A stretch of 64,000 nucleotides of DNA from Eggerthellaceae bacterium. Its GTDB lineage: Bacteria; Bacillota; Clostridia; Christensenellales; UBA1242. Under the pieces are notes generated by a model. The model was given only the letters and a program-made list of their open reading frames with translations, was not told where the DNA came from and made no database searches. The first letter of the stretch is position 1, and each line of letters begins with the position of its first letter. Shown piece after piece: positions 596 to 63,988 of this stretch. The stretch covers positions 15,047-79,046 of the forward strand of contig CAVCJG010000005.1 in the NCBI GenBank assembly GCA_963602685.1, in the 5' to 3' direction. Position numbers and translations under genes: made by a program.

Positions 596-3500
596 TTAAG
601 GATTTGAAGTTTTTGTTGAGTCAGTCAGATAGATTCTAAGCTCTCCAAGAAGTTTCTTGTAATTTGCATTACCATACTCTTTGCCATCGAAATTACCACC
701 AGGTCCACCTGAAGCCTTAATCCAAATTCTGATCAAGATGTATTGGTTTTTGTTCAACTCATAATGAGAACCAGTCGTAATCGTTCCTTTAATTGGATCA
801 ATAGTAGCATCAGTATAGCTTGTTCCATCTTTACCAATTGTGAATTCAAGTGCAGATGTTTTGGTATCGGCCTTGATAATATCCATTAGTGTTGTAATTG
901 TATCGTCCTTTTCTACTGTTGATTTTCCTAAAGCGGCGGACGCTACTGTGACATCAGAATATTTCTGTCCTTTTTCATCCGTATTCCCCTTTGCCCAATC
1001 TTCTAATTTAACAGTATAGCCAATATAATTATTATTTTTGTCGACTGCCTTTAATTCCTCCCAATCCTCTTTGGTCTTATAAATCTCTTTAACAACTTCT
1101 TGACCTAAGCCGTTGTCGAAGTAAGCATATTTAGGAGTCATAGTAAAGTTATGTTTATATTGATAATAAGTTCCATTAGCTTTAATGATATAACTCTTTG
1201 TAATGCTGTATTGATAAACGTCAGTAACGCTAGTCTTTGAAGGAATCCTTTCAGCACTTTCAATGTAAAGAATATCATGATCAATCTCATTAATCTCTAA
1301 ATCTTGCTCTGGCTTTTCATTTTTATCTTTATCATAAGAACCTGTGTTATCTGCTAAGTTAAGATCACCTTGGTCATTCAAGCCAACTTCATAAGTGCTG
1401 CCGTCCAACACAATTTTTGATCCTGAATAGTTGTCAACCATATTCCATTGGATAGTCGGCTCTTCATTCACTGTAACCTGTTCACCTATCATAACAAGCT
1501 TGTATTTAATTTCTTTTCCGTCATGAATTTTAAGAAGCTTATATCCATAAATTTTGTTGTTCAATTCTATCGTGCCGTATGGGCTTTCTACTTTTTTATT
1601 TTGATAGACAGGCTTATCGTTACTTCCTATATTTTTAATACCATAGTAAACGCTTGCGCCGTCAGGACCCGCCCATGAAACTTCAATTCCCATGCCTTCT
1701 GGGTTTATTGTTTTTCCATAAACTTCAGAAAGACTAATGAAATCAGTTCTTTGACTTGTTGTTGAAGTGTTGTTTCTCGTCAATACAAAGTTTTTCCATG
1801 TATCGTTTTCTGAAACATTGATAGACAACACTACTTGTCCTTGTGCAGGAATTGTAACTGCCAATGTGTCGTCATAGTAAGTACCATTTGCGGTTTCGTC
1901 CTTACCAACTGGTTTCAAATTGCAAAGTTTTGGATCCGTTGTTATATATTTGCCAAGCTCAAATTTCTGGCCATCAACAATTACTTTCGCCGTCGAATTA
2001 AACTTAGCTTTCTTTGTAATATTTGCGTTGTAGACTACTACGCAACTTTCTTCTTTGTTTGTTACACCTTTTTTGTAGGTCAAGCTTATCAAAATAGAAA
2101 CTTGAGTTGTATCCGATGTTCCGTAAATCCAACCATCCATATAAGGAACTTTATAATATCCTGCACTTAATGTTCTATATTGAGAATTTGCACCAGGCCA
2201 ATACAACGCATCTGTTGCAAGGTTTTTCGTGCCGCTTGATGTGACTACGCTTGTTTCTTTTTCACTTGCGTCAAGCCCCAAGTAATAATTGCGTTGTTCA
2301 TACGGCTCATATACTCCTTCGAGAGAAACACTCGTTGGTTTTGTGTTTGCCCCAGTTCCTTGTATATCTATTTTAACGGTATATGTAGTGTAAACCTTTT
2401 CGTCTACTTTAACTGGAGTAAGTTGGGCGCCACTTACATGTTGAACGCCATTGACTTTTAATTTGTATATTGGCGCCTCATCCGTGCCGCCTTTTATAAC
2501 CTCAAATTCTCTGTCGACTCCATTTATTTTGGTTTCCCATTTATATGGTGCCGTTGTTCCTGTCAATTTACCTGTTATTGTTGCTTTAAGCTTGTCTGCA
2601 TTTTTTTCCTGGGCCACGCTATAATATGTTACACCCTTATAAGTTATTGACGCATTTGCACCACCTGCTAAACAGCAATTGGTCTCATCATATTCATGAC
2701 TTACAGCATCTTGGCCTGAGCCTAATCTAAATGTGGAACTAGCCGCTGGCCCATCATAATGTTTTGCAGATTCTCCTTTGTCACTCTCATATTTAAATGT
2801 AACACCAGTTACTGTAACATCATGGAATTTAGGTGCGCTAGTATATTTGCCAGAAAGAACGGATTTCACATCTGCTTCGCTTGCATTGGTTGTAAGTCCC
2901 CATGCATCAATGTTTTGAAGAATAATTTTGCTAATTGTATCTGTTTCTGGAGCCTTATTGTATTCAATTTCAGCAGATTTTGTTACATTTTTTTGATCAT
3001 CTTTTGTTTCGTTGATTGAAATTGCATCATAAACAAGTCCGACATCAAAATCATCGCCTTCAGTAAAGTTTAAGGTTGAAACAGCTTCATAAACTGTAGG
3101 TGTTTGATCATCTGCAGGGACAAGATTGAAATAGAACATAATCTTGTAACCATAATCATCAGTAATCTCAACAAAATATTGTTTTACGCCAAACACTACT
3201 TCTGCAGGAGCAAATTTAATTGTTGGTATGTTTGGCTTATACTGATTACCATTCTTTGTCCAATAAGGTTTTTCCTTACTGTTTATCGTTTCTTTCGCCT
3301 CTGTCAATCGCAACTTGTCAATATTTGCCTTAGTATTGTATTCACTGTTTTCTTGTTGTGTAAGCACATAGGCAAAACTGTAAGCGATGTTTGTTGAATT
3401 CCAGTTTGTTCTGATTGCAGAAATGAGTTGCTCGCCAGCGTCTTTACCTGCAAGTGTCATTTCTTTTGACTTGCCATCTGTAACCGATGGAGTAAACACA

Positions 3501-6500
3501 TAAGGTTTATCTTTGTTTGTTACGTATGCGCTGTTATTTTCAACAACAGGTTCATATTTTTCACCTGCAAGAGTGATTTCATAGTCAGGAACAATCTTAA
3601 CTACTATATAGAATTCACTTGGGGTGTTTTGTTTATATTGGTATATTATCTTAACTAAAACATAGTCGCCATCTGCTGCACATCCAAGTCCAAACAAATA
3701 GTAGTCGTAAATTTTCTTGCTATCATTTTTTCCTACTTGTTCTGCAATATCGTGCAATTTAAGATAGTCTTCAAATTTTGAGTTTTGATATTGATATTGT
3801 TTATATCCATCAAATATTCTATACATTGATGAGCCGCTAGAAACATCCATTACTTCATATTTAAGTTCTGCATCACCGAGTGATTTTGCGGTGATAAGTT
3901 CGCCGGTTGATGGATGACGAATTCCCGCTTGTTCAACCAAACGATAATATTCACCCTTGTGAGCTTCGATTTCAATCACCGTTGGAGTTGAGCTTGAATC
4001 TGTTGGAGTAAACGAACGATCAACAGCAATATCTAATCCCATTTCAACTTGATAGCTGATTTGAGACTTTATTGTTCCACTGTCCCCAATTCTGTATCCA
4101 ACTTGATAAGTTGTGATTTCGGTATTGGCATCTGTCTTCGCGGAGCCAGATTGAACGGTTTGCATATCCGCATTTGTTATATCAATGCTTTGTCCATCGG
4201 CTGTTGCATAACGATATTCAACTCTGCCTGCTGTGCGAACAAATGTAACACCTGTCATTACAGCATCTTTTGTTACATCTGCATCTGCTTTTGCAAAGAA
4301 TACGATTGTTTGATTTGCAGCAAGTTGAAGTGCACTTACCCCGCTGTCAACATATATTGTTCTGCCAACATATTCAGATTTAAGTTGGAATTGCAAAAGT
4401 ACAAGAGGCTCAGAAGTTCCTTGTTTCGTAACAGGAGTGTAAGTTCCGTTTGCGTCCACTTCGACAACATATGGATAATAAACTGCGCCAACAAGTGCAC
4501 TTGCCCCAACTTCGAGTTTGAGCAATCTTGACTTATTGAATAAGTCTGTGGTATCGATGCGATCTTGATAGATTGTTTCGACTTCGCCGTTTCTATGGAT
4601 TGTTGAGTTTACATAACCACTTACAACATTGTCAAAAACATAAACGGTATAGTTGATTGACACACCATGATATTTAACTTGCAAAATTACATAACTCACA
4701 CCTGTTTCATTGCCTTTTGTGAATTTAAAAATAGCAGTTTCTGGCTTCACAGTCGGCTCAGGGGTGACGGTCAATTCAGAATTCTCAGTCGAGTTAGGAT
4801 TTGCGTATAATGCATAATACGTTACAGAGGTTCCCGTTGTTGTTTGTTCTCCATATTCCACTGTTTTCATATTTTGTATGTCAATGATTTTTACTGAAGC
4901 GTTGCCAGTTAATGCACTATAGTTATCTGCATATCCACCGTCATATCCGCCGTTTGCTATGTTGACCTTAGCGGCTGCTGCTTGAATTCTATTTGCACTT
5001 GCAAATTCCGCAGCTGATGATAAGAAGCTATCGATTTTTGCTCCGCTTATAACTGATTCATAAGTAAGGTTTTCAGTTTGGCTTGGGTTTGGATAGTTTG
5101 TTTTAAGTCTGTATGCTGGATAGATTGTCACTGGCACACTTACATTAAACGTGAATAAATCTTTATATGTGAAAGTTAATGTAACAGTTGTGCTGGTTGT
5201 GATTGCAACGTCTTTTGCTTTGATTGTAATCTGTCCATCACCACTCATTGTAATTGTATCGAACAATCCTGAATCTTGAGCACTCCATGCCAATGAAAAG
5301 CCTGTGGTGCTAAAAACTTTTGCATCTTGTTGTAATGATGTAAATGTAATTCCAGTGTATTTTGTGCCCGAAATTATCGATTGAGTTTCAAGAGATTGCT
5401 TAGGTTTGATGTTTGCTGCAATTTCATAGGTGTATATTACATAACCTGTTTTTTTTATTTGGGAAGTAATTTCTTCTCCCGCTTCGTTCGTGGTTGTTAC
5501 TGTGTATTTATACTTATAATATAATTTTAAAGTAATTGTTTTATCTTCAATAGCATTGAAAATTGTAATTGATTTGCCATCGTCAACAAGGTTAACGTAG
5601 TCAATATCACCACCTTCTGTTTTAATAGTATCCAATTCAGCGTCTTTTGTGGTTAACTTAACTAAGTCTCCAATCGCATATTTCCCGCCAGCAGTAAGTG
5701 TTTGATTCTTTTGAGTAGCATTGACAGTTGCAGGAATGATTAAAGTAATTGTTGAAATTACTTTTCCGTCAACTGAGAAGTAAACATTTCTTGTTATTTC
5801 ACTTTCTCTAAATTCTGGAAGTTTAATTGAAAGAGTTGGGTTTGCTGCTTTGTAATCATATTCAACTTTGTAACCTTTCTCCTTCTCCAAGTTATGCGTT
5901 AATACTGTTACTACTTTGTTTGGATCGACATTGCTTTCGCCTGAGTCAGTGCGTTGTTTTGTTGTCGCCTTAACTGTTTGAGCGTCTGTGGTGTTTGCCA
6001 ATTTCCAAGTTGCATCACGAGTTCCGACTGTGAAGTTTCCGTCGCCAGCATTGTATGCCATAACATATTCAACGCTGCTTGCATTGATTGAGAATACATA
6101 TTCAAAATCTGCGCCGTAAACATTTCGATATTCTCTTAACAATTTTACTGTAACATTCTTTGCATTTGCTTTGTTTGTAAAAGTTACATTAAGTTCTGTT
6201 TGTTTGCCATTACTATCTTCTACGATTCCAATCGCAACTGTAAATATTTCATTAGTTTGATAGTATTTATCGTCATTGCCTTTTTTAGTATAATCCTTTC
6301 CGTCAATCAAAAGTTGTGAAACTGTTAAATTTGCTTTAGCCGAAATGTCTGTAGGTATTGTTTCCCCATAACGTTGAATCACGTCTTCAATTCTATGTTT
6401 GTCTTGATTTTGAGTATCTGCACCTAATTTTGCTTTTAAATCAATTTTTATTGGTTCGTCTTCGTTATTTTCAACTGTTAAGTTTTCAGCGCTGCCGCCA

Positions 6501-9500
6501 AATGGATATGTAACATTATTTTTTATTATTTCAAAATTAACATTTTCTGGTAGGTCTGATGGGTTTATAAAATTAAAATTATTGTTTGTTGCATTTGGTT
6601 TAACTTTCAACATAAAGCGATAAATCAATCCCTCAATCGCCCCATTGGTATTTTTTTGAGTAATTTCAAAATAGGTCTCTACATCAGTATCTGAGATAAT
6701 ATCGTTGATTGTAAGGATATTTCCATTGATGGAATAAACTTTTTGTCCCTTCAATGTGCCAAATTCAACTGAAGTTTTATTTGTTTCAAAGTCAGTCGCT
6801 TGCAAACCTGTTAAATACTTGTCATCTCCAAGTGAAGTTAACATTTCACCATAAATGCTGTCTTTGTAAGTATATTGTTTTTCGCCATTATAATTTATTT
6901 TGCATCCGTTTTCGTTTTTGCTTCCTACGTACGCTTTATAAATTACGATTGCCTTGCTTGTTGTATCAATAGACTTAAAGTAATAAGTTGTTGTAACTTC
7001 GTCGGCGGTAATTGTAAATGTTTCTCCAACTGAAATTAGTTTACCATTATTTACGCCTTCGGCTTTAATTTCATTGTTTTTATTAACCGTGAATGAAACT
7101 TTTTTAAAAGTGAAAGTTCCACCACCGTTTTCGTCTGGAGTGTATGTTATATTGCCGTCTTTATTGTCTTTGCCCATTTCTTCAACGATGGTTAATTTTC
7201 CATCGTCCAAATAATATTCAAAAGGTGCAACAAGATAATATGTTTTGCCACCTTCAACTTCAGCAAACAAATTGTTAGGGTTGTTGAGAGTGTCGTTTAA
7301 GTCGGTGTTGTTTGTGTTTGAATCGCCAGGTGTTTCATATGGATAAGATGCGATTTTGCTTCCTACACGTGACCAAACAAATGGAATTTGCCATGTCGCA
7401 AGATCATTGCCTAGATTCCCATCTGTGAAATCCCTAAAGAAGACTTTGAAATATACTGATTTTCCAGCAATCAACGCATCATTAGATTTGCTTGCAAAGT
7501 TGATTGATTGCCCCGCGATATTGTATGCGTTTTGAACTCCAGTAAGTTTTATTCCGATTTTTTTGTCGTCAGAACCATTGGAATTGCTTGATATAGAATG
7601 TAGATAATAATCACCTAAATTTTTTTGGAAGGTTGCACTATTTCTGTCCACCCAAACTGCATCATAGCCGTTATATTTTATTGTTGTTCCAAGCATAAAT
7701 AAATCTGAGAAGTCTGCAAGTTCTACTATGCTAAATCCAAGTGAAAGATTTGCTGAGCATGTAGCAACAACTTTTTCTAATTCTTTTATCGTTGCTTTTG
7801 CTGAAATAGTGATAGTTTTGTATGTTTCACCATAGCCTAAATCTAAAGGCAAAACTGAAACAAACTTTTTATTTGCATCAAGTTGATAGTATTTTGAAAT
7901 TTCGTATGATGAAATTCCACCAATCTCCGTAGCGTCAACTGCTTGAACAGCGCCATATCCAAGCGTTGTTCTTTTTAGCTCGAAATATTGTGTGAAGTCA
8001 TTATCTAACTTTATGTTTTTAACGCTTAAATCACGGCTGCTTTTTTGAACGAGCTTAAAGTTTGGACAAACAACAAGTGTTAAGTCTTTATAATAAGCAT
8101 ATTTATTGCCATCTATAACATAAAGAGTGAATGTGTATTGTGTAGGTTCGTAAACATCATTAAATGTCAACTTACCGTTTTCGAATTTTCCGACTTTATC
8201 GCTATTGACTACGAGTTCCTCATTCTTATATTTATCTATTTGATCCCATTTTACATATGTAAAATTTCCTTCTTCATCTGCTTCGCCAAGTCTAACTTTA
8301 ACGTATTCATTAAGGTCGATTGGGAAAGCGGCATAAACGTAGATTGCTGTTGGATCAAAGTCTTCGTCTTTGTCTTCGTCGGCAACGCCTTTCTGGTCTT
8401 TTGTTTCGCCGTTTACTTTATATTCGCCATATTTGATGTTTGCAAAGTCCACTTTTTCTTCTGTTGCGTATTTTTTAATTGTGATGTCAAAAGTAAAGTT
8501 TAATGTCGAATCGCTGTTTGTTGCGACAAATGAAATTGTAACGTCATCGGCAAAGTTTTCTTTGATTTTAAAACTTTTAATTTCAGTCGTTGTTTCGCCA
8601 GTGGTGAACTCAATCATACCATTTAACGCGGCGCTTGATTCATCTTTAAGTCTAATTGTGTAATAATTTGGATCGTATTTTCCAGAAGTTACAAAAACAT
8701 CAAGAAGTCCGTTTCGGGCGTCGTCATCTTCGCTTGTGTTTTTAAGGACGACCTCGTTACCCGCTTTGCCATCCATTGAGTATTTTGGATTTGCAAGGTT
8801 TTGTTCTGCGCCTTCAACTTCAATTCTTGTAACGCCAGTTGTTGAAACATTTAATGTAAAACTATATGACACGCTGCCCGCTGTGATTGTAACAATAATT
8901 CCGTTTTCAGTGCCTGTGCCGAATGTGATTTTCTTTTCGCTGTTGTCGGCAATTACGATTTTTGAGTTTGAAGATGAAATTGTGTAATCATATTTAAAAG
9001 CACGATCATAAACATCAGTGATCACTGTTTTATCTTCGCCGTTTATAAGTTCAGCAAACTGATTGATTGCGTTTTCGCCAGTGTATTCTACATCTGTTCC
9101 CTTAATTGAAATTGTGCTTGTGCCGTCGCTTGTCATGGTTTGAGTAACATCAAATGTTTGGCCTTTCAATGCTTCGTTTGCAATGCCTTTTGGACGTTGG
9201 TTGTAAACAACTACTCCCGCTTGCTTGTCGCCATCGGCAGGTTGAGCCGTCCAATCTAAAATTGCAACTGAGTTGTTGTATTCAACACGAACAAAGAATT
9301 TTGTTCCCAATTCTTCTGCGATGTTTACATCAGCCTTTGTTTTTACTGGGACAGTAACAACGTCGCCTGCAAGAGTCATTTCGCCAAATTCAAAAACGTC
9401 GCTCCCAACTCTGTCTTTGCCCGCAATGTCTTTGCTTGCATAGAAAGTGATTTTGCTTTTTTCGTTTTCAAAGATAGCAGCGTCGCCGGCTTCTTTTAAT

Positions 9501-55157: not shown

Positions 55158-56258
55158 TTATCCAAACATTCTTACAGGAAGAATTAAATACAAGAATTCG
55201 TCGCCTTCTGTTGGAACAATAACGCATGGGTTTGATGATGTGTTTAAGCAAAGTTTAACAAATTCGTCGTTGCTTGCTTTTAAACTTTCCAAAATAAATC
55301 TAGGGTTGAAAGCGATTGTCACATCTTTGCCGTTTAAAACTGCTGAAATCTTTTCTTTAATGTTTCCGATTTCTGAGTTTGATGTAAGTTGAACAGCGCC
55401 TTCTTTAATGTCGAATTTTACAAAGTTGTTTTGTCCAACTTTTGAAAGGAGTGAAACTCTTTCAAGAGCATCTTCAAGTTGAAGTTTGTTTACGATTACA
55501 AATGTTTCATAGTTCATTGGAATGATTTGTTTGTAGTTTACAAAATCGCCTTCCAAGAGTCTTGAAATAATCTTTGTGTCGACTGTGTCAATCATGATTG
55601 CGTTTGAGTCGATGTAAACGTTGATAATATCGTCGCTGTCGTCAAGAAGTTTTGAGATTTCGTTGAGTGAGCGGGTAGGGACAACAATTTGTTTTTTAAC
55701 ATTTGCTGTTGCCTTTTTCTTAACACGTGCAAGTCTGTATCCGTCAAGCGCTACTGTGCTGATTTCTTTTTGGTCAATATCAAAAAGCACGCCTTTCAAA
55801 ATTGGTCTTGAATCGTCAAGCGCTACTGAGAAGATTGTTTTGCTGATAAGTGCTTTCAAATCTTTTTGGCTGATTCCAAACCATTCGTCAGTTTTGAGTT
55901 TTTTAAATCCAGGATATTCAACTGCGTTGTAGCATTGAATGATGCTTTCGTTTCCGTCATAGCGAATGAGAAGTTGGTTTTTGTCGTTTACTTCAAGTTC
56001 GATTTCTGAGTTTGAAAGTTTTTTAACAAACTCGGTGATAAACTTTCCAGGAACAACTGTTTCGCCTTCAACTTTAATGTCCGCTTTGATTTTCTTTTCA
56101 ATCGAAAGGTCAGTATCAGTTGCACTTAAAGTAAGTTCGTTGTCTTCTGCTGAGATTTTAATTCCTTCTAAGATTGGATTTGTTGGCTTGTTTGAAAGTG
56201 CTTTACTTACTCTTAAAAAAGCATCTGATAATTCAAGTCCTGAACAATTTAATAACAT
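55158..56258 (-). CDS. dnaN: DNA polymerase III beta sliding clamp
   Basis: 366 aa, typical three-domain clamp. C-terminus LILPVRM. Confidence 0.92.
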   Translation of the reverse strand: MLLNCSGLELSDAFLRVSKALSNKPTNPILEGIKISAEDNELTLSATDTDLSIEKKIKADIKVEGETVVPGKFITEFVKKLSNSEIELEVNDKNQLLIRYDGNESIIQCYNAVEYPGFKKLKTDEWFGISQKDLKALISKTIFSVALDDSRPILKGVLFDIDQKEISTVALDGYRLARVKKKATANVKKQIVVPTRSLNEISKLLDDSDDIINVYIDSNAIMIDTVDTKIISRLLEGDFVNYKQIIPMNYETFVIVNKLQLEDALERVSLLSKVGQNNFVKFDIKEGAVQLTSNSEIGNIKEKISAVLNGKDVTIAFNPRFILESLKASNDEFVKLCLNTSSNPCVIVPTEGDEFLYLILPVRMFG

Positions 56259-56473
56259 AATTTTTCTCCTTTGGCGCGCGCCTTTGATATATTATTTTTT
56301 TATTTAAGTATTAGTAATAATAGTAGTGGGTGTGTAAATGTGGATAAGTCGATAATTTTTTGTTTCAAGTGCAACATTTTGCTTGTTTTTGTCGAATGTG
56401 ACACCATATATAGTTTTTGTTTGAGTGGGCAAAATGTTTATAACTTGTTTACAAAAATATTTTTTTATCCACT
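56259..56473. other. Predicted oriC unwinding module in the dnaA-dnaN spacer (DnaA boxes, TAG-type trinucleotide array, AT-rich tract)
   Basis: Perfect DnaA box TGTGGATAA at 56339-56347. 8/9 box TTATCCACT at 56465-56473. TAT-TAG-TAA-TAA-TAG-TAG at 56309-56326, separated from the box by the G-rich TGGGTGTG. Almost pure A/T tract at 56286-56320. GGCGCGCGCC palindrome at 56273-56282. Confidence 0.6.
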
Positions 56474-57811
56474 TGTCAACATCTTTTTGATTTCGCTGAC
56501 AAATGTTTGTGTTTTGCGGTTGGTTTTCATTTCGTCGGATATCTTGTCACGTGAGTGCATGATTGTTGTGTGATCTCTTCCGCCGAATATCTTTCCGATT
56601 GAAACAAGTGGAAGTTCAAGCATTTCGCTTATCATATATATAGCAATCATTCTAGGCTCTACAATTTCTTTGCTTTTCTTTTTGCCGACAATGTCGTCTC
56701 GCGAAATTCCAAAGTATTCACAAACTGCCGATATGATTTGGTCGGTGTTTGCTCCGCCTTCATTCTTTTCTTCATACTTGTCGCTGAACGCTTCTTTAAC
56801 GTCGGAAAGGTCAGCCGATGTTTTGCCTATCAGGTTTGAAAGGAAACATACTTTTGAAAGCATACCTTCAAGTTCACGAACGTTTGAATCAATTTTGTCT
56901 GCAATGTATTCAATCGCGTCGTCGCTTATTGAGTATTTTTCGATTTGGCATTTCTTTCTTAAAATCGCAACACGAGTTTCAAAGTCGGGTGGAGTAAGGT
57001 CTTGTGTCAGGCCTTGCAACAGGCGTGAGCGCAATCTTTCTTCTAGTGTTGGAATTTCTTTTGGATGACGGTCTGAAGCAATTATGATTTGCTTGCCATA
57101 TTGAATAAGATCGTTAAAGGTGTTGAAGAACTCTTCTTGCGTGCTTGTCTTTTTTGAGATGAACTGAATATCGTCGACCATTAAGACGTCGCAATTTCTG
57201 TATTTATCTCTAAACTCTTGATAGGTTTTGTTTTTGCCTGTCGAGCCAAGTGATTCAATATAGTCGTTTGTAAACTGTTCGCAAGTAACATATCTTATTT
57301 CAAGTTTTGGACTGTTTTGTTTAATATAATTTCCGATTGCGTGCAAAAGGTGAGTTTTGCCAAGTCCAACACCACCATACAAAAACAATGGGTTGAAAGT
57401 TTTTCCTGGATTTTCTGCAACTGCTTTTGATGCGGCATATGCTGTTTGATTTGATTTGCCCACAACAAAATTGTTGAAAGTGTATTTTGGATTGAGTGGA
57501 TTTTTAACAGGTTCGATATCTTTTGTTTCGGCAGGCTTGTTTTTAGCAACATATTTTGCTTCTTCGTCTGGATCCAAAATTTCGATTTCAATGTTTTCGC
57601 CAAAAATGTCATCGACAGCCGATTTGAGTTTGTCGAAGTAGTTTTTTAAGATTTGATTTTTAGCAAATGTGGATTTGGCAGAAATAAAAAGCACATCGTC
57701 TGCAAGGTCGATAACTTTTGAATCTTTAAACCACATTGAATATGAAACGTTTGAAAGCGATAGTTCCAATTTTTCTAAAACAATGTTCCATAAGTTGTTG
57801 GTGTCGTGCAT
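56465..57811 (-). CDS. dnaA: Chromosomal replication initiator protein DnaA
   Basis: AAA+ Walker A GGVGLGKTHLL. Domain IV with IFGGRDHTTIMHS. Confidence 0.95.
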   Translation of the reverse strand: MHDTNNLWNIVLEKLELSLSNVSYSMWFKDSKVIDLADDVLFISAKSTFAKNQILKNYFDKLKSAVDDIFGENIEIEILDPDEEAKYVAKNKPAETKDIEPVKNPLNPKYTFNNFVVGKSNQTAYAASKAVAENPGKTFNPLFLYGGVGLGKTHLLHAIGNYIKQNSPKLEIRYVTCEQFTNDYIESLGSTGKNKTYQEFRDKYRNCDVLMVDDIQFISKKTSTQEEFFNTFNDLIQYGKQIIIASDRHPKEIPTLEERLRSRLLQGLTQDLTPPDFETRVAILRKKCQIEKYSISDDAIEYIADKIDSNVRELEGMLSKVCFLSNLIGKTSADLSDVKEAFSDKYEEKNEGGANTDQIISAVCEYFGISRDDIVGKKKSKEIVEPRMIAIYMISEMLELPLVSIGKIFGGRDHTTIMHSRDKISDEMKTNRKTQTFVSEIKKMLTSG

Positions 57812-57943
57812 TTTGTCCTTCCACTTTTAAATATCTATTACAATTTTACACATTAAACCAAATTAAGTCAAACAAAACAAAAGTTTACAAAAAAGTTTTT
57901 CAAACTGTTTAAGTTATTTTGTAAATGTGCTATATTATAAGTG

Positions 57944-59023
57944 ATGAAATTGCAATCAATCCATCTTAAAAACTTTCGTTCTTATTCAAACGCCGATGTT
58001 TCCTTTTCGCCCGACGTTAACTCTATCGTTGGCAAAAACGCGCAAGGAAAGACCAATTTGATTGAAGCGATTTACTTTACTTGCATAGGTAAAAGTTTTC
58101 GCACAAGCAAGGAAAAAGAGCTTATTAAGTGGGGCGAAGAGAGCGCCGCAATTTCGATAGTTGCGAAAAACGAATTTAGAGAGAAAAAACTTGACGTCAT
58201 CTTGCAAAAGTCGCAAAAAAAGATTGTAAGAATGGACGGAATTAATATAAGAAGAATAGGCGACGTGCTTGGCGAAGTGCCTATCGTGTTTTTTTCGCCG
58301 GACGAACTTAAACTTGTTAAAGAAAGCCCAGAAGAGCGCCGCAGATTTATGAACATTGATATTTCGCAGACAAACAAAAGATATTTTTATTTGCTTTCGA
58401 GATATGAAAAGATTTTGGACAACCGAAACAAACTTTTAAAATCCACACAAAATAAAGATGTTATTTTAGAGACCATCGACATTTGGAACAAAGCATTAGC
58501 CTCCGCCGGCTTAAAAATTGCAAACGAGCGAAAACAATTTATACAAGAAATTGCGCCTTATGCAGAAAAGGCAAACGAGTTTATTTCAAACGGCGAAAAA
58601 CTTCAAATCGCATACAAAGGCATCGACGTTGAAAGCGAAGAAGAATACATTAAAAAACTTGAAAAAAGTTTTGATAAAGATTTTAAACTTGGCTTTACTT
58701 CGTTTGGCCCACACCGAGACGATATTGACATTTTCTTAAATGGCGTTGAAGTGAAAAGTTTTGGCTCGCAAGGACAGCAGAGAACGGCTGCGCTTTCGCT
58801 TAAACTTGCCGAACTTGAAATCATCAGAGAAAGAACGGGCGAATATCCAATTTTAATTTTAGATGATGTGTTTTCGGAACTTGACGAAAATCGTCGAAAA
58901 AGACTGATAAAGTTTACAAATAGATGTCAAACGTTTATAACAACCACCGATATCAACTTTACACAGTCACTTGCAAACAATATCATCATTGATGACGGCA
59001 AAATTAGCACGGCCGGACATTGA
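57944..59023 (+). CDS. recF: DNA replication and repair protein RecF
   Basis: KLQSIHLKNFRSY, Walker A GKNAQGKTNLIEA, signature FGSQGQQRT and Walker B ILILDDV. The track ORF starts at GTG 57941; the adjacent ATG at 57944 is preferred. Confidence 0.9.
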   Translation: MKLQSIHLKNFRSYSNADVSFSPDVNSIVGKNAQGKTNLIEAIYFTCIGKSFRTSKEKELIKWGEESAAISIVAKNEFREKKLDVILQKSQKKIVRMDGINIRRIGDVLGEVPIVFFSPDELKLVKESPEERRRFMNIDISQTNKRYFYLLSRYEKILDNRNKLLKSTQNKDVILETIDIWNKALASAGLKIANERKQFIQEIAPYAEKANEFISNGEKLQIAYKGIDVESEEEYIKKLEKSFDKDFKLGFTSFGPHRDDIDIFLNGVEVKSFGSQGQQRTAALSLKLAELEIIRERTGEYPILILDDVFSELDENRRKRLIKFTNRCQTFITTTDINFTQSLANNIIIDDGKISTAGH

Positions 59024-59063
59024 CAATAAAAGTAAAATTTGATAAAATTTACTTGAGGGGAAA

Positions 59064-60254
59064 ATGTTAGAACTAGACGAAAACAAAGTGCACAAAATTG
59101 AATCGTTTGAACTTGAAAAGTCGCCAACAGAAAAATTGGTTTGTTGTTATGTTGACGACGAACTTCGCAACGGCAAAATTGACAGCCGTGGCAAGAAAAG
59201 CAAGTTTTGGATTTGCAACGAAAAAAATATGCAAGCCTATCTTTTAAAATACAGCGACCAAAGAATCAGAACCGAAGAAGATGCAGGCCAGTTTTTAATG
59301 TGCGGAATTTTGGATCAACTCAAACTTCCATATGCTAAATATCTTGTTGCTGATTTTGAATGTGACGGCGTTAAATATGATGCCATTATAAGCAAAAACT
59401 ATAAAGAGAATGAAAACATTTTCGAAATGTCTGGATATGCTGTAAATCAAAAGTATAAAGACACCATGTATGACAACAATTTTGGCGAAAAAATAAATGA
59501 TACAAACAACGTTGAAGACTATGCCAAAATGATTCAATTTATGTATAAAAAGAACAACATTGACTTTGAACAACTGCGCACAAACATGCTTAAATATTGT
59601 CTTTTGCAATATGTTTACGACATGAGCGATTTGCACTATTACAACATTTCGTTTAGTTATGATAAGTCAATCGGTCATGATACATTTAGACTTAATCCTT
59701 TTTATGATTGCGGAAATATTTGCTTTTTAAATTTTTCGGATAAAAAGATTAAACACAATGTCGAACAATATTCTAAGTGCCGCGATAAAAACGGCAGAAT
59801 GAAATTTATTAAAAACTTAATGTATTCAAATATGCCTATGCTTGGAGTTAAAACTGACATTTCATATATTTACAAAACTGAAAGTCAAAGTTTTACTTGC
59901 CGACCAAACTGCGAAAAGTGCAAAGGCGAAAGCATGATTAAACAGGCCGAACGCGACCTTGCAATTTTGCAAAACGAACTTGCCGATGAAATTGTCACAA
60001 ATCCACAACTTTTTGAATTTTATGAAAGCGTTAAAAAAGTGGATTTAGACTTGGCTGCGAAAAAGTATAACGAGATAAAGGAAAATACAATTCCAGCATT
60101 TTGCATTGATATGGTTAAAGCGGTGTCTTGCGAAACTTCGCGTATGCTTGACAAGATTGTAAAGACAAAACTTAGCAAAGAGAAAAAACTCACCGATACA
60201 AAAGCGGTTGAATCTAAACCTAAGGAGGCTGAAAATGATAAGCCTGTTTTATAA
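59064..60254 (+). CDS. HipA-like Ser/Thr kinase domain protein lacking the N-terminal HipA subdomain (HipT-like)
   Basis: GKKSKFWI (P-loop equivalent of GAQxK). Catalytic-loop MSDLHYYNISF (DxHxxN). FRLNPFYDCG (LaPxYD Mg-binding motif). GAGGGG RBS. Confidence 0.65.
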   Translation: MLELDENKVHKIESFELEKSPTEKLVCCYVDDELRNGKIDSRGKKSKFWICNEKNMQAYLLKYSDQRIRTEEDAGQFLMCGILDQLKLPYAKYLVADFECDGVKYDAIISKNYKENENIFEMSGYAVNQKYKDTMYDNNFGEKINDTNNVEDYAKMIQFMYKKNNIDFEQLRTNMLKYCLLQYVYDMSDLHYYNISFSYDKSIGHDTFRLNPFYDCGNICFLNFSDKKIKHNVEQYSKCRDKNGRMKFIKNLMYSNMPMLGVKTDISYIYKTESQSFTCRPNCEKCKGESMIKQAERDLAILQNELADEIVTNPQLFEFYESVKKVDLDLAAKKYNEIKENTIPAFCIDMVKAVSCETSRMLDKIVKTKLSKEKKLTDTKAVESKPKEAENDKPVL

Positions 60255-60564
60255 AGAATTCGAACTTGGCGTTTTGTCATATGATAATGACAGCAACGAG
60301 TTTGTTTACAACTCAAATATAGAAAACGAAAAGAAAGCCGATGAAAAATATTTTGGACTTGAACTTTACAATCTTTTCGGCAGCAAAAATCGTCGCAGTA
60401 AAAATCTGTTTTCACAGTTCTGCGAAATCGCCGGTTGTTTAAATCGTCCAGATATTGTTCGCATGGCTGGAATCGAAAAAGGGGACAGCCTTTATCAAAA
60501 ACTTGAAAAACTTTCAATGTTAAAATTAAACGACGAAGACTATTTTATTCGCTTTAAAAAATAG
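60235..60564 (+). CDS. HipA N-terminal-subdomain-like small protein (HipS-like, 109 aa)
   Basis: Start at the ATG at 60235 with a perfect AAGGAGG 6 nt upstream, overlapping the kinase gene end by 20 nt. MISLFYKEFELGVLSYDNDSNEFVYN follows the HipA N-terminal pattern (L.V.....vG.L.......F.Y). Confidence 0.55.
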   Translation: MISLFYKEFELGVLSYDNDSNEFVYNSNIENEKKADEKYFGLELYNLFGSKNRRSKNLFSQFCEIAGCLNRPDIVRMAGIEKGDSLYQKLEKLSMLKLNDEDYFIRFKK

Positions 60565-60576
60565 GCGTTTAAGCGC

Positions 60577-60605
60577 TTGACAAATTGATAAAAAATATTT
60601 ATGAT
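60577..60605 (+). promoter_or_regulatory. Promoter TTGACA-17-TATGAT for the Asp T-box leader
   Basis: TTGACA 60577-60582, TATGAT 60600-60605. Confidence 0.55.
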
Positions 60606-60611
60606 TTTAGT

Positions 60612-60826
60612 GTTAAATGTTTGACAGAAAAAGAGTATGCCTACCTGCGGCTTACAGTGAGACGAGACAGTGAAAATCGTCAGCGACTTGCGATAGGTTG
60701 AAGACAGTTTCTTTAGTTTAACCGGTATTAAGTTCGTAAACTTAAAAATGAGTGACCCATTTGGGTAAGTTAGGTGGCACCACGGAATTTTTCGTCCTAA
60801 CGCAGATGATTGCGTTAGGATTTTTT
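60612..60826 (+). promoter_or_regulatory. T-box leader (specifier most likely GAC, tRNA-Asp) with terminator, upstream of aspS-asnS
   Basis: AGAGT GA-motif region near 60634. Specifier context GAA-GAC-A (GAC at 60703-60705). T-box AAGTTAGGTGGCACCACGG (60768-60786). Terminator TCCTAACGCA / TGCGTTAGGA (60795-60804 / 60811-60820) plus T6. Confidence 0.8.
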
Positions 60827-60848
60827 AACGCTTAAAAAGGAGAAATGT

Positions 60849-62603
60849 ATGATTACAAAAAATATTTACAGAAATTGCGACTGCGGAAGTTTAAGACTTG
60901 CTGACGCAGGAAGAGAAGTCGTTTTGGCTGGTTGGGTTAACAGTATCCGTGAACTTGGCGGGCTTACTTTTGTTACGCTCAGAGACCATTATGGAATTAC
61001 ACAACTTGTTGTTAAAGACCACGACCTTATGAAAAACGTAAACAAAGAGTGCACAATCTCAGCACACGGCATGGTTGTAGAACGCGAAAGCAAAAACCCT
61101 AAAATGCCTACTGGTGATATTGAAGTTGTAGTTGACAGAATCGTTGTTTTAGGAAAGTGCCAATCAACTCTTCCTTTTGAAATTTCTTCATCAAATTCAA
61201 CAGGCGAAGCATTAAGACTTAAATATCGTTATCTCGACCTTAGAAATCCAGAAAATCACAACATTATCGTGCTTAGAAGCAAAATGCTTAACTTTGTAAG
61301 AAACAAAATGTATAACATGGGCTTTACAGAAGTTCAAACTCCAATTCTTGCAAATTCAAGCCCAGAAGGTGCACGTGACTTTATCGTGCCAACAGTAAAT
61401 GCTCCTGGCGAGTTTTTTGCTCTTCCACAAGCACCACAACAATTTAAACAACTTTTAATGGTTGCCGGATTTGATAGATATTTTCAAGTTGCTCCATGCT
61501 TCAGAAACGAACCAGCACGTGCGGACCGTTCACCTGGCGAATTTTATCAAGTCGACTTTGAAATGAGTTTTGCAACACAAGAAGATGTTTTTGCTGTTTG
61601 CGAAGAATTTATTTCTGACCTTTTCCGCACTCTTGCGCCAGAGCGTAAAGTTTCAACTGTTCCACTTACTCGCATTCCATATCGTGAAGCGATGGACAAA
61701 TATTGCTCAGATAAACCTGACCTTCGAAACCCTCTTATTGTGCACGACCTTACAAAGATTTTTGCTAACACAGAATTTAATGCTTTTAAAGGCAAAACAA
61801 TCAAAGCAATCGCAACTGACGTTGGAGAAAAATCACGCAAGTGGTATGACGAAATCGGACAAGTTATTGTTGCTTATGAAGGCAAAGGCTGCGCTTGGGT
61901 TAAATATCACGACGGCGAATTCAGCGGAAGCATTGTAAAATTCTTAAACGACGAAGATAAAGCCAACATTATTAAAGAATTCAATCTTAAAGGCGGCGAA
62001 AGCATTTTCATCGTTGCGGACAGCGAAGAAATGGCGCCAAAACTTGCAAATGTTTTGAGAAACGAACTTGGCAATCGCCTTGACCTTATCGACAAAAACG
62101 CTATTGCTATGTGCTGGATTGTTGATTTCCCATTCTTTGAAAAGAACAAAGAAACAGGCAAAATTGACTTTGGACACAACCCATTCAGTATGCCACAAGC
62201 AACTTTAGAAGAACTCAGCACAAAAAATCCATATGACATTTTGGCTTATCAATATGATATGGTTATCAACGGCCACGAATGCTTGAGCGGGGCAGTTAGA
62301 AACCACGACCAAGACATCATGCTTAAAGTGTTTGATATGGTTGGATACAACGAAGAAGTCGTTAAACAAAAATTCGGCGCACTTTATTCAGCATTCTCAT
62401 ATGGCGCTCCACCTCACGCCGGCTGCGCATTCGGATTTGACTCACTTTTGATGATTGTTGCGAATAAAGAACTTATGCGTGAAATTATCGCGTTCCCACT
62501 CAGCAACAACGCAAGAGACCTTATGATGAACGCTCCAAGCAAGATCGACGACAAATTCTTAAGAGAAGTTGGCATCCAACTCATCGACAAAGGAGATAAA
62601 TAA
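60849..62603 (+). CDS. aspS: Aspartate--tRNA ligase (bacterial type)
   Basis: 584 aa. N-terminal OB fold ([29 protein letters not shown]). Class II motifs FRNE and [15 protein letters not shown]. Confidence 0.93.
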
Positions 62604-63988
62604 TGAAAAGAACCGAACTTAAAACTCTTCAAAAAAACTTTGCCGATTATGACGGCAAAACCGTTACTGTTTGCGGTTGGGCAAGAACCGTTCGTGATTC
62701 GAAAAACATCGGATTTATCGAACTTAACGACGGATCTTTCAAAAGCGTGCAAATCGTGTTAGAGCGAAGCAAACTTGCAAACTATGACGAACTTGTTAAA
62801 CAAAATGTTGGCGCTTCATTTGAAATTGTGGGAAAAGTTATTGTGACTCCACAAGCAAAACAACCTTTTGAAATCAACGCTGACAAGGCGGAGGTTTTAG
62901 GAACATCTGCAACAGATTATCCTCTTCAAAAAAAGGGACATTCGATTGAATTTTTAAGAAGCATTCCTTTTATTCGCGCAAGGGGGAACCTTTTTAATGC
63001 TGTTTTTAAAATTCGTTCAACTGCCGCTTATGCAATTCATAAATACTTTAATGAACGCAACTTTGTTTACGTTCACACTCCAATCATAACAGGCAGCGAT
63101 TGCGAAGGCGCAGGCGAAATGTTCCAAGTTACAACACTTGACCTTGACCGTATCGCAAAAGACGGAAAAGTTGACTATTCAAAAGACTTTTTCGGCAAAA
63201 AAGCATCGCTTACTGTTTCGGGACAATTAAACGAAGAATGCCTTACTCACGCTTTCGGCAAAACTTACACATTTGGCCCAACTTTCCGTGCAGAAAAGTC
63301 AAACACAACTCGCCACGCCGCTGAGTTTTGGATGATGGAGCCAGAAATGTGCTTCTGCGAACTTGACGAACTTATGGACAACGAAGAAGAAATGGTTAAA
63401 TACGTAATTTCTTATGTTATGGAAAACTGCCATGACGAAATGGAATTTTTAAACCGCTTTGTCGACACTGGGCTTATCGAAAGACTTAAAAACGTTGTTG
63501 AAAACGATTTTGTTAGACTTGACTATACTGAAGCAATCAGCATTTTAGAAAAAGTTAAAGACAGATTTGTTTTCCCTGTTAATTGGGGAGTTGACCTTCA
63601 ATCAGAACATGAAAGATATCTCACCGAAGAAGTGTTTAAAAAGCCAGTATTTTTAATCAACTATCCAAAGGATATCAAAGCCTTTTATATGCGCTTAAAC
63701 GACGACAAAAAGACTGTTGCTGCGGTTGACCTTCTTGTTCCTGGCATCGGCGAACTTATCGGCGGAAGCCAAAGAGAAGAAAGACTTGATGTGCTTAAAA
63801 GCAGAATGGCTGAAATGGGCTTGAAAGAAGAAGATTATAAATGGTATCTTGACACACGTCGCTATGGCACAAACAAACATTCTGGTTATGGCCTTGGCTT
63901 TGAAAGAATGGTTATGTATCTTACAGGCATTCAAAATATTCGTGATGTTGAAATATTCCCAAGAACTGTGGGCAACTTAGAAGGATAA
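62603..63988 (+). CDS. asnS: Asparagine--tRNA ligase
   Basis: 461 aa. [27 protein letters not shown] fold, [21 protein letters not shown] motif 2, [12 protein letters not shown] motif 3. The start overlaps the aspS stop (TAATG). Confidence 0.93.

Follow-up and report, generated by a model that had tools for sequence, protein, structure and literature searches.

A kinase gene and a small partner gene lie directly after recF in a 64,000-nt stretch of an Eggerthellaceae bacterium genome (assembly GCA_963602685.1, contig CAVCJG010000005.1, positions 15,047–79,046 of the forward strand). This whole stretch is called the window. The first gene encodes a HipA-superfamily Ser/Thr kinase of 396 amino acids (aa) with intact catalytic residues, and the second encodes a 109-aa protein that is very probably HipS-like. 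The pair and its control elements have the following window coordinates.

59020–59048, + strand: sigma-70-type promoter of the pair (TTGACA, 17 nt, TAAAAT, TG extension; 11/12 consensus matches)
59030–59054, unstranded: inverted repeat AAGTAAAATTT / AAAATTTACTT (11-nt arms, 91% complementary, 3-nt spacer), spanning the -10 element
59064–60254, + strand: kinase gene, 396-aa open reading frame (ORF); HipA-superfamily Ser/Thr kinase, HipT/HipJ-like, without N-subdomain 1
60222–60228, + strand: Shine-Dalgarno sequence AAGGAGG of the small gene, within the 3′ end of the kinase gene, 6 nt (ctgaaa) from the ATG
60235 (ATG) to 60564, + strand: partner gene, 109-aa ORF; HipS-like (HipA N-subdomain-1-like) candidate

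The original prediction, made from the sequence of this locus, gave both ORF sizes, the AAGGAGG-6-ATG start and a 20-nt overlap of the two genes (60235–60254), and all are exact on re-reading of the window. An automatic ORF listing starts the 109-aa ORF upstream, at TTG 60208. ATG 60235 was taken as the start because a ribosome-binding site precedes it. A purine-rich, Shine-Dalgarno-like motif precedes the small-gene ATG in 14 of 14 junctions listed. Across independent assemblies the two genes overlap by 20, 17, 8, or 4 nt or are separated by 8 or 28 nt, each time with an ATG. A single gene broken by a frameshift had been named as an alternative that would overturn the prediction. This variation excludes a frameshift artefact, and the two-ORF layout recurs with differing junctions. 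Ratios of nonsynonymous to synonymous substitution rates (dN/dS) against the close, 95%-identical genome L011 are 0.05 for the kinase gene and 0.07 for the small gene, and both genes are under purifying selection. The junction is built for translational coupling, and the pair is co-transcribed from the predicted promoter.

Family membership of the kinase was assessed with profile searches. Pfam HipA_C (PF07804) scores 22.4 bits on the window kinase, versus a gathering cut-off of 30.5 (E 1.1e-4, residues 138–220 only), and NCBIfam gives merely a YjjJ trace. PADLOC profile PDC-M03A matches residues 38–235 with E 1.3e-10. PDC-M03 is a pair of HipA and HIRAN proteins (PMC13245101) and is among the 145 untested “guilt by embedding” defence candidates (bioRxiv 10.1101/2024.01.29.577857). 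A word-indexed search of 5.8 billion proteins returned 18 kinase homologues. An exhaustive hidden Markov model (HMM) search of 1.84 billion cluster representatives (clusters at 50% identity) returned 85 relatives at E ≤1e-3. HipA_C matches 55 of the 78 full-length relatives at E <0.01 (best 2.6e-13), and PDC-M03A matches 70 of the 78, with E down to 1e-79. Because these intermediate relatives match both profiles, the window kinase is tied to the HipA superfamily. The profile check proposed with the original prediction is therefore weak on the window kinase and positive through its relatives, and it is negative for the small protein with all Pfam profiles.

Catalytic motifs and fold agree with this assignment. 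The kinase has a Gly-rich loop (R42-G43-K-K-S-K47-F48-W49), an ATP-binding Lys (K62), a catalytic loop (D189-L-H191-Y-Y-N194), and an Mg-binding motif (N-P-F-Y-D215), so that the hallmarks first recognized as GKKSKF, DLHYYN, and NPFYD are all present. In the 78-sequence alignment the sole invariant positions are the four key residues K62, D189, N194, and D215; G43 is found in 72 sequences, H191 in 68, and W49 is nearly invariant. Aligned to E. coli HipA with hhalign, DLHYYN falls on DGHAKN and NPFYD on TPFYD, in register. An AlphaFold2 model from a 19-sequence alignment has a predicted local distance difference test score (pLDDT) of 89.4 and a predicted template modelling score (pTM) of 0.88. 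Foldseek matches this model to CtkA, HipA, HipT, and Legionella HipT in the PDB (E 2e-7 to 3e-4, probability 1.00, target TM 0.33–0.54). The top 34 entries are these four proteins plus two CotH kinase entries. Since the Gly-rich loop begins at residue 42, the kinase is without N-subdomain 1. The absence of the N-terminal subdomain had been predicted, and it is borne out by the loop at 42–49 and by the lack of any Couple_hipA or HipA_N match in the kinase with Pfam.

A C-terminal extension of about 120 aa had also been predicted. An extension exists, and its size was overstated. In the window kinase 181 residues follow the Mg-binding Asp (D215), versus ~102–108 in HipT and HipA (D233 of 335; D332 of 440), so the excess is ~60–80 aa, and part of the supposed extension belongs to the helical C-lobe that any HipA fold has. 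The excess consists of a beta-hairpin insertion at ~267–286, a long helix at 345–383, and a disordered tail at 384–396. The hairpin with its “CRP” motif is clade-specific and missing from 71 of 78 wider relatives. All 19 sequences of the near clade have C28, C216, C279, and C347, and 18 have C220. These five cysteines could form a metal or redox site, judging from their conservation. A HAP1 Zn2Cys6 profile match at the C-terminal region (E 0.12) was judged a chance match; in the CRPNCEKC string only the first Cys, C279, is invariant.

The small protein was compared by predicted fold and by profile. Sixteen homologues were found, and its model has a pLDDT of 93.5. A Foldseek search against 350,542 PDB chains gave the Shewanella HipA N-domain, E. 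coli HipS, and Legionella HipS as best matches. HipA N-domain and HipS entries take six of the top seven places and align over the full length with TM 0.54–0.58; among the HipS entries are 7ab3_E (TM 0.55/0.58 over 111 columns) and, from Legionella, 7vkb_B and 8ezr_A (TM 0.54/0.57). The N-terminal part of PADLOC PDC-M03B (positions 19–71 of 248) matches the window protein with E 3e-3, and this HipS-like region matches 5 of 17 members of the small-protein family. At locus L016, the partner of a distant kinase is homologous to the window protein (E 1e-28) and matches Pfam Couple_hipA (“HipA N-terminal domain”) over its full length with E 2e-3 (19 bits versus a cut-off of 22.5). The weak PDC-M03B and Couple_hipA matches share the same N-to-C register. 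No Pfam domain, HIRAN included, was found in the small protein or its relatives. On its modelled structure, and not on significant sequence similarity, the small protein appears best explained as a HipS / HipA N-subdomain-1-like domain. The predicted HipS-like identity thus holds for the modelled fold and the weak profile links, and does not extend to a significant direct sequence or profile match.

The two genes are consistently paired. The small gene lies directly 3′ of the kinase gene in 21 of 21 kinase genes scanned, and also at L023 and L025; L022 is left out of this count because its contig ends too early to tell. Pairing holds for kinases down to ~20% identity to the window kinase, and no fused (HipL-like) form of kinase and HipS-like domain is found among the 85 relatives. 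The same gene order, which the original prediction suggested looking for elsewhere, was found in every related locus with downstream DNA. Six related genomes carry the pair at the same site, with dnaN-dnaA and recF before it and an aspS- or asnS-type gene after it where the contig extends. This site is kept even where DnaA is only 67% identical to that of the window. Around the more distant members the genes are ordinary chromosomal ones, and none is obviously of mobile-element or defence type; the ~8 contexts examined include no defence-island neighbours. A related-locus search with the family alignment returned three GTDB genomes, one metagenome contig, and no viral contigs. No relevant match was found in plasmids or phages by tblastn, in a PHROGs scan, or in a BFVD fold search.

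Both genes diverge rapidly. Protein identities (%) at the shared site are given below.

Window versus L003: DnaN 98, DnaA 98, RecF 83, kinase 56, partner 63, AspS 89, AsnS 97
L007 versus L008: DnaN 92, DnaA 83, RecF 73, kinase 48, partner 60

At the recF-aspS site nothing diverges nearly as fast as the pair, whose two proteins change in parallel. The module combines this rapid divergence with vertical inheritance and a core-chromosomal location. This combination is compatible with a resident conflict system of co-evolving partners, or with a lineage-specific regulator that is weakly constrained outside its catalytic core. Divergence peaks at the pair and is also raised in the adjoining genes (window 57941–62603 versus L003, L009, and L019). 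The raised divergence around the pair could reflect hitch-hiking or recombination near a fast-evolving locus.

Some genomes have two copies. Loci L001, L012, and L013 carry two paralogous pairs ~1 kb apart, adjoining an alaS-like gene.

L001: pairs at 3610–4946 and 6001–7471
L012: pairs at 3483–4807 and 5899–7372
L013: two pairs
Proteins in these loci: 330–332 aa + 107–109 aa; 382–383 aa + 113 aa

An NTP-transferase gene lies between the paralogous pairs, and the flanks hold the alaS-like gene (tRNA-synt_2c + tRNA_SAD) and an inorganic pyrophosphatase gene. Genes for aminoacyl-tRNA synthetases adjoin the pair in two contexts that are unrelated: aspS-asnS (window 60849–63988) and alaS-like (L001 1411–3243; L012, L013). 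This adjacency may be a coincidence or a functional link and is taken as a lead only. The distant member P0026 (L014 55–2656; L015 1359–3960) has three opposite-strand neighbours: a 386-aa Band_7 + zinc-ribbon protein, a 355-aa Cys-rich, zinc-ribbon-like protein with a C-terminal hydrophobic segment of membrane-spanning appearance, and a small 117-aa protein with hydrophobic stretches and a C-terminal CxxC pair.

The promoter of the pair overlaps the recF stop codon, and recF ends 40 nt upstream of the kinase gene. In an alignment of seven loci the TTGAC and TA.AAT hexamers are invariant. At L007 and L008 the promoter comes after a stem-loop and T run that, judged by eye, resemble a recF terminator, and the pair is therefore regarded as its own transcription unit. 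The inverted repeat at 59030–59054 could be an operator; the other loci do not share its sequence. Different short palindromes seemingly occupy the same spacer at L003 and L019 (by eye). They are putative operators, yet the operon encodes no DNA-binding protein. No helix-turn-helix (HTH; HipB-type) gene adjoins the pair, as had been predicted, and no further conserved ORF lies between recF and the T-box leader before aspS.

Surrounding features of the window are as follows.

55158–59023: dnaN and dnaA on the - strand, diverging from recF on the + strand
56339–56347: perfect DnaA box, in the dnaN-dnaA spacer
60577–60605: promoter-like site of T-box/aspS-asnS (TTGACA, 17 nt, TATGAT)
60613–60802, + strand: T-box leader before aspS-asnS (72.1 bits, below the Rfam gathering score of 93; E 6e-16)
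60794–60821: terminator hairpin of the T-box leader, before aspS-asnS

The T-box leader was missed by the default gathering-threshold scan. The cumulative GC-skew minimum lies at ~52–56 kb of the window. Together with the DnaA box this places the pair near the likely origin, and replication probably starts here, 1–3 kb from the kinase pair. The predicted place right after recF is confirmed, and both markers agree with a position beside the origin. The window has 36.9% G+C content. Its DNA is 93–98% identical (300-nt windows) to a metagenome-assembled genome, “Clostridiales bacterium UBA11517” (L011), and the kinase is 96% identical to a protein on a human-gut metagenome contig (L021).

Ten Hip gene organisations were defined by Gerdes, Baerentsen and Brodersen (mBio 2021; PMC8262856). 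Among them, hipJS consists of a short core kinase (HipJ) and a downstream HipS without HipB, hipIN of HipI and a downstream HipN in which a HipS-like domain is joined to HIRAN, and hipL of a kinase, HipS-like domain, and HIRAN in one fusion (PMC8262856). They account for 2 (hipJS) and 14 (hipIN) of 1,239 modules, and phage defence was proposed for hipIN and hipL (PMC8262856). The kinase-first order with a HipS-like second gene and no HipB had been offered as a possible new arrangement. It is not new: it corresponds to hipJS and hipIN (PMC8262856) and to PDC-M03 in PADLOC. No experimental work on hipJS-type kinases was found in the literature searched.

On balance, the pair is read as a hipJS-type “split HipA” module with its own promoter and translational coupling, in which gene 1 encodes a catalytically competent kinase and gene 2 its detached lid; this reading is held with slightly better than even confidence. 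HipS binds where N-subdomain 1 sits in HipA and neutralises HipT by locking the Gly-rich loop outward, partly via Trp65 (PMC10627512). By analogy with the tripartite HipBST system, the small protein would dock on the kinase at the N-subdomain 1 position, next to the Gly-rich loop, and would control, most likely block, the loop conformation needed for ATP binding. Release or degradation of the small protein would then allow the kinase to phosphorylate an essential translation component and arrest growth. Aminoacyl-tRNA synthetases offer a precedent for the target, as GltX is phosphorylated by HipA and TrpS by HipT (PMC8262856). Halting growth in this way could help the cell to tolerate stress or act as abortive defence against phages. 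Complex formation between the two proteins, kinase inhibition, toxicity, and the target are all proposed by analogy with characterised Hip systems, and so is a toxin–antitoxin (TA) or defence function.

Several points weigh against this hipJS-type reading. The kinase is 396 aa long with a Cys-containing hairpin and a long C-terminal helix, versus 279–321 aa for HipJ. Neither HipS Trp65 nor the SIS autophosphorylation motif of HipT is conserved in the window pair. The partner and nearly all of its relatives have no Trp, so the inhibitory residue Trp65 is without a clear counterpart, and no conserved Ser/Thr stands beside the Gly-rich loop, where S41 and S46 vary. Details of inhibition, if inhibition occurs, and of autophosphorylation control must therefore differ from those of HipBST. 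The operon encodes no DNA-binding partner to autoregulate it, and a vertically kept core-chromosome setting, absent from plasmid, phage, and viral collections, is unlike that of a typical mobile TA or defence module. For the small protein, Foldseek E-values of the HipA N-domain and HipS matches are weak (0.17–3.9), and searches of Pfam, NCBIfam, and PDB sequences gave nothing meaningful, whether run with one sequence or with a profile. Comparison of its profile with residues 1–130 of E. coli HipA by hhalign was not significant. Neither was comparison with a 12-sequence HipA N-subdomain profile drawn from Table S1 of PMC8262856, in which the LG-x-L hairpin alone aligned, in register. These Foldseek values of 0.17 or worse, the non-significant hhalign comparisons, and the Pfam and PDB sequence searches that do not match the window protein would also suit a small protein unrelated to HipS, a lineage-specific accessory whose fold likeness is convergent or a model artefact. 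That explanation is improbable, as the HipA N-domain and HipS matches are specific (six of the top seven, full length, TM >0.5), two independent weak profile matches point to the same domain in the same register, and the genomic logic is identical to that of hipJS. An annotation or sequencing artefact, whether one gene broken by a frameshift or a chance ORF, has a negligible probability. The two frames do overlap by 20 nt in the window; against this, the layout recurs in independent assemblies with differing overlaps or gaps and a Shine-Dalgarno motif and ATG each time, and in its own frame the small gene shows purifying selection, its product being modelled as a compact domain.

Other readings accept the split kinase and differ in its role. 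The pair may be an obligate two-subunit housekeeping or regulatory kinase instead of a TA system, with the small protein as a detached N-lid for folding, activity, or substrate choice and the heterodimer tuning a core process, for instance translation or the start of replication. This is possible, and it is held only tentatively. It stays in play because in intact HipA the same N-subdomain belongs to the active enzyme (PMC10627512). It would also suit the fixed oriC-side site between recF and aspS down to 67% DnaA identity, the ordinary chromosomal surroundings of other members, the strong purifying selection, and the lack of a Trp65 equivalent; kinase-first coupling would in addition suit similar amounts of both proteins. 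It is harder to reconcile with a pair that diverges far faster than its neighbours (window versus L003), a pattern more usual for conflict systems, with closest recognisable relatives that are candidate defence or TA kinases (PDC-M03A, HipI/HipJ), and with a family as rare as 85 clusters among 1.84 billion. Abortive-infection phage defence is a functional variant of the hipJS-type reading, in which a phage product or damage caused by the phage would remove the HipS-like protein and the kinase would shut down translation. Homology to PDC-M03A and PDC-M03B, picked by “guilt by embedding”, the proposal of phage defence for hipIN and hipL (PMC8262856), the rapid parallel divergence, and the two paralogous pairs in some genomes all favour it. 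It is rather unlikely, given that PDC-M03 is itself an untested candidate, that the window pair has no HIRAN or other sensor domain, that no defence-island neighbours occur in ~8 contexts, and that the position is stable and vertically inherited. About as doubtful is a split HipA kinase that has been domesticated and fixed next to oriC in one lineage of gut Clostridia, its HipS-like subunit being regulatory or specificity-conferring, and not a selfish or mobile TA. Such a heterodimer would control a core process, for which the neighbouring synthetase is a candidate (aspS-asnS in the window; alaS-like by the duplicated pairs), and C28, C216, C220, C279, and C347 could give metal or redox input. 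If true, a Hip-type kinase would here, for the first time, be a physiological regulator passed on vertically.

The choice between a resident TA or defence module and a domesticated regulator is the most interesting question raised by the pair. New here are a divergent and rare subfamily in uncultured Clostridia of the human gut (~85 clusters at 50% identity), in which pairing is universal, and its fixed recF-aspS place in related gut Clostridia with a conserved promoter of its own and purifying selection yet fast divergence. A stable origin-side core position combined with rapid parallel divergence of both partners is unusual for a Hip module. The family is also a natural set of co-evolving kinase–HipS pairs, of use for studying lid control of HipA-fold kinases without HipB, and domestication.

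Known systems resemble the window pair to different degrees. The top Foldseek match to the window kinase is CtkA (JHP0940) of Helicobacter pylori (E 2e-7, target TM 0.52–0.54), a short kinase of HipA fold that likewise has no N-subdomain 1 and shares only 14% sequence identity with it. CtkA is known as a secreted pro-inflammatory kinase from an H. pylori plasticity zone. HipA/HipB of E. coli K-12 shares the kinase fold, the D-x-H-x-x-N loop, the Mg-binding Asp, and the ATP-binding Lys. It differs in that HipA is one chain including the N-subdomains and that the HTH antitoxin HipB is encoded upstream, and the window kinase is below the HipA_C threshold. HipBST of E. coli O127:H6 and Legionella pneumophila is likewise a split HipA, with a kinase without N-subdomain 1 and a separate HipS-fold protein. 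It is the structural template for the proposed mechanism, and Foldseek matches include 7ab3, 7ab4, 7ab5, 7vkb, and 8ezr. Its order is hipB-hipS-hipT with an HTH HipB, whereas the window has the kinase, then the partner, and no HipB.

The hipIN/PDC-M03 group gives the best profile match for both window proteins (PDC-M03A, E 1e-10; N-terminal part of PDC-M03B, E 3e-3) and has the same gene order. PDC-M03B models have 245–248 positions, of which 19–71 alone align, whereas the window partner has 109 aa and no HIRAN domain, and it is therefore without the putative DNA-end sensor. Closest in architecture is hipJS, which is bicistronic and kinase-first, with a kinase without N-subdomain 1, a Gly-rich loop near the N-terminus, a downstream single-domain HipS-like protein of ~100 aa, and no HipB/HTH gene. 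Besides its longer kinase with the clade-specific hairpin and long C-terminal helix, the window pair differs from hipJS in its stable core-genome position and in a partner whose sequence has diverged too far to match HipS significantly. Likened by gene architecture and not by tree placement, the window pair is a divergent new example of the hipJS layout. The catalogue of Hip architectures is unchanged by it; catalogued hipJS operons number two only (PMC8262856), and the window finding adds a whole subfamily.

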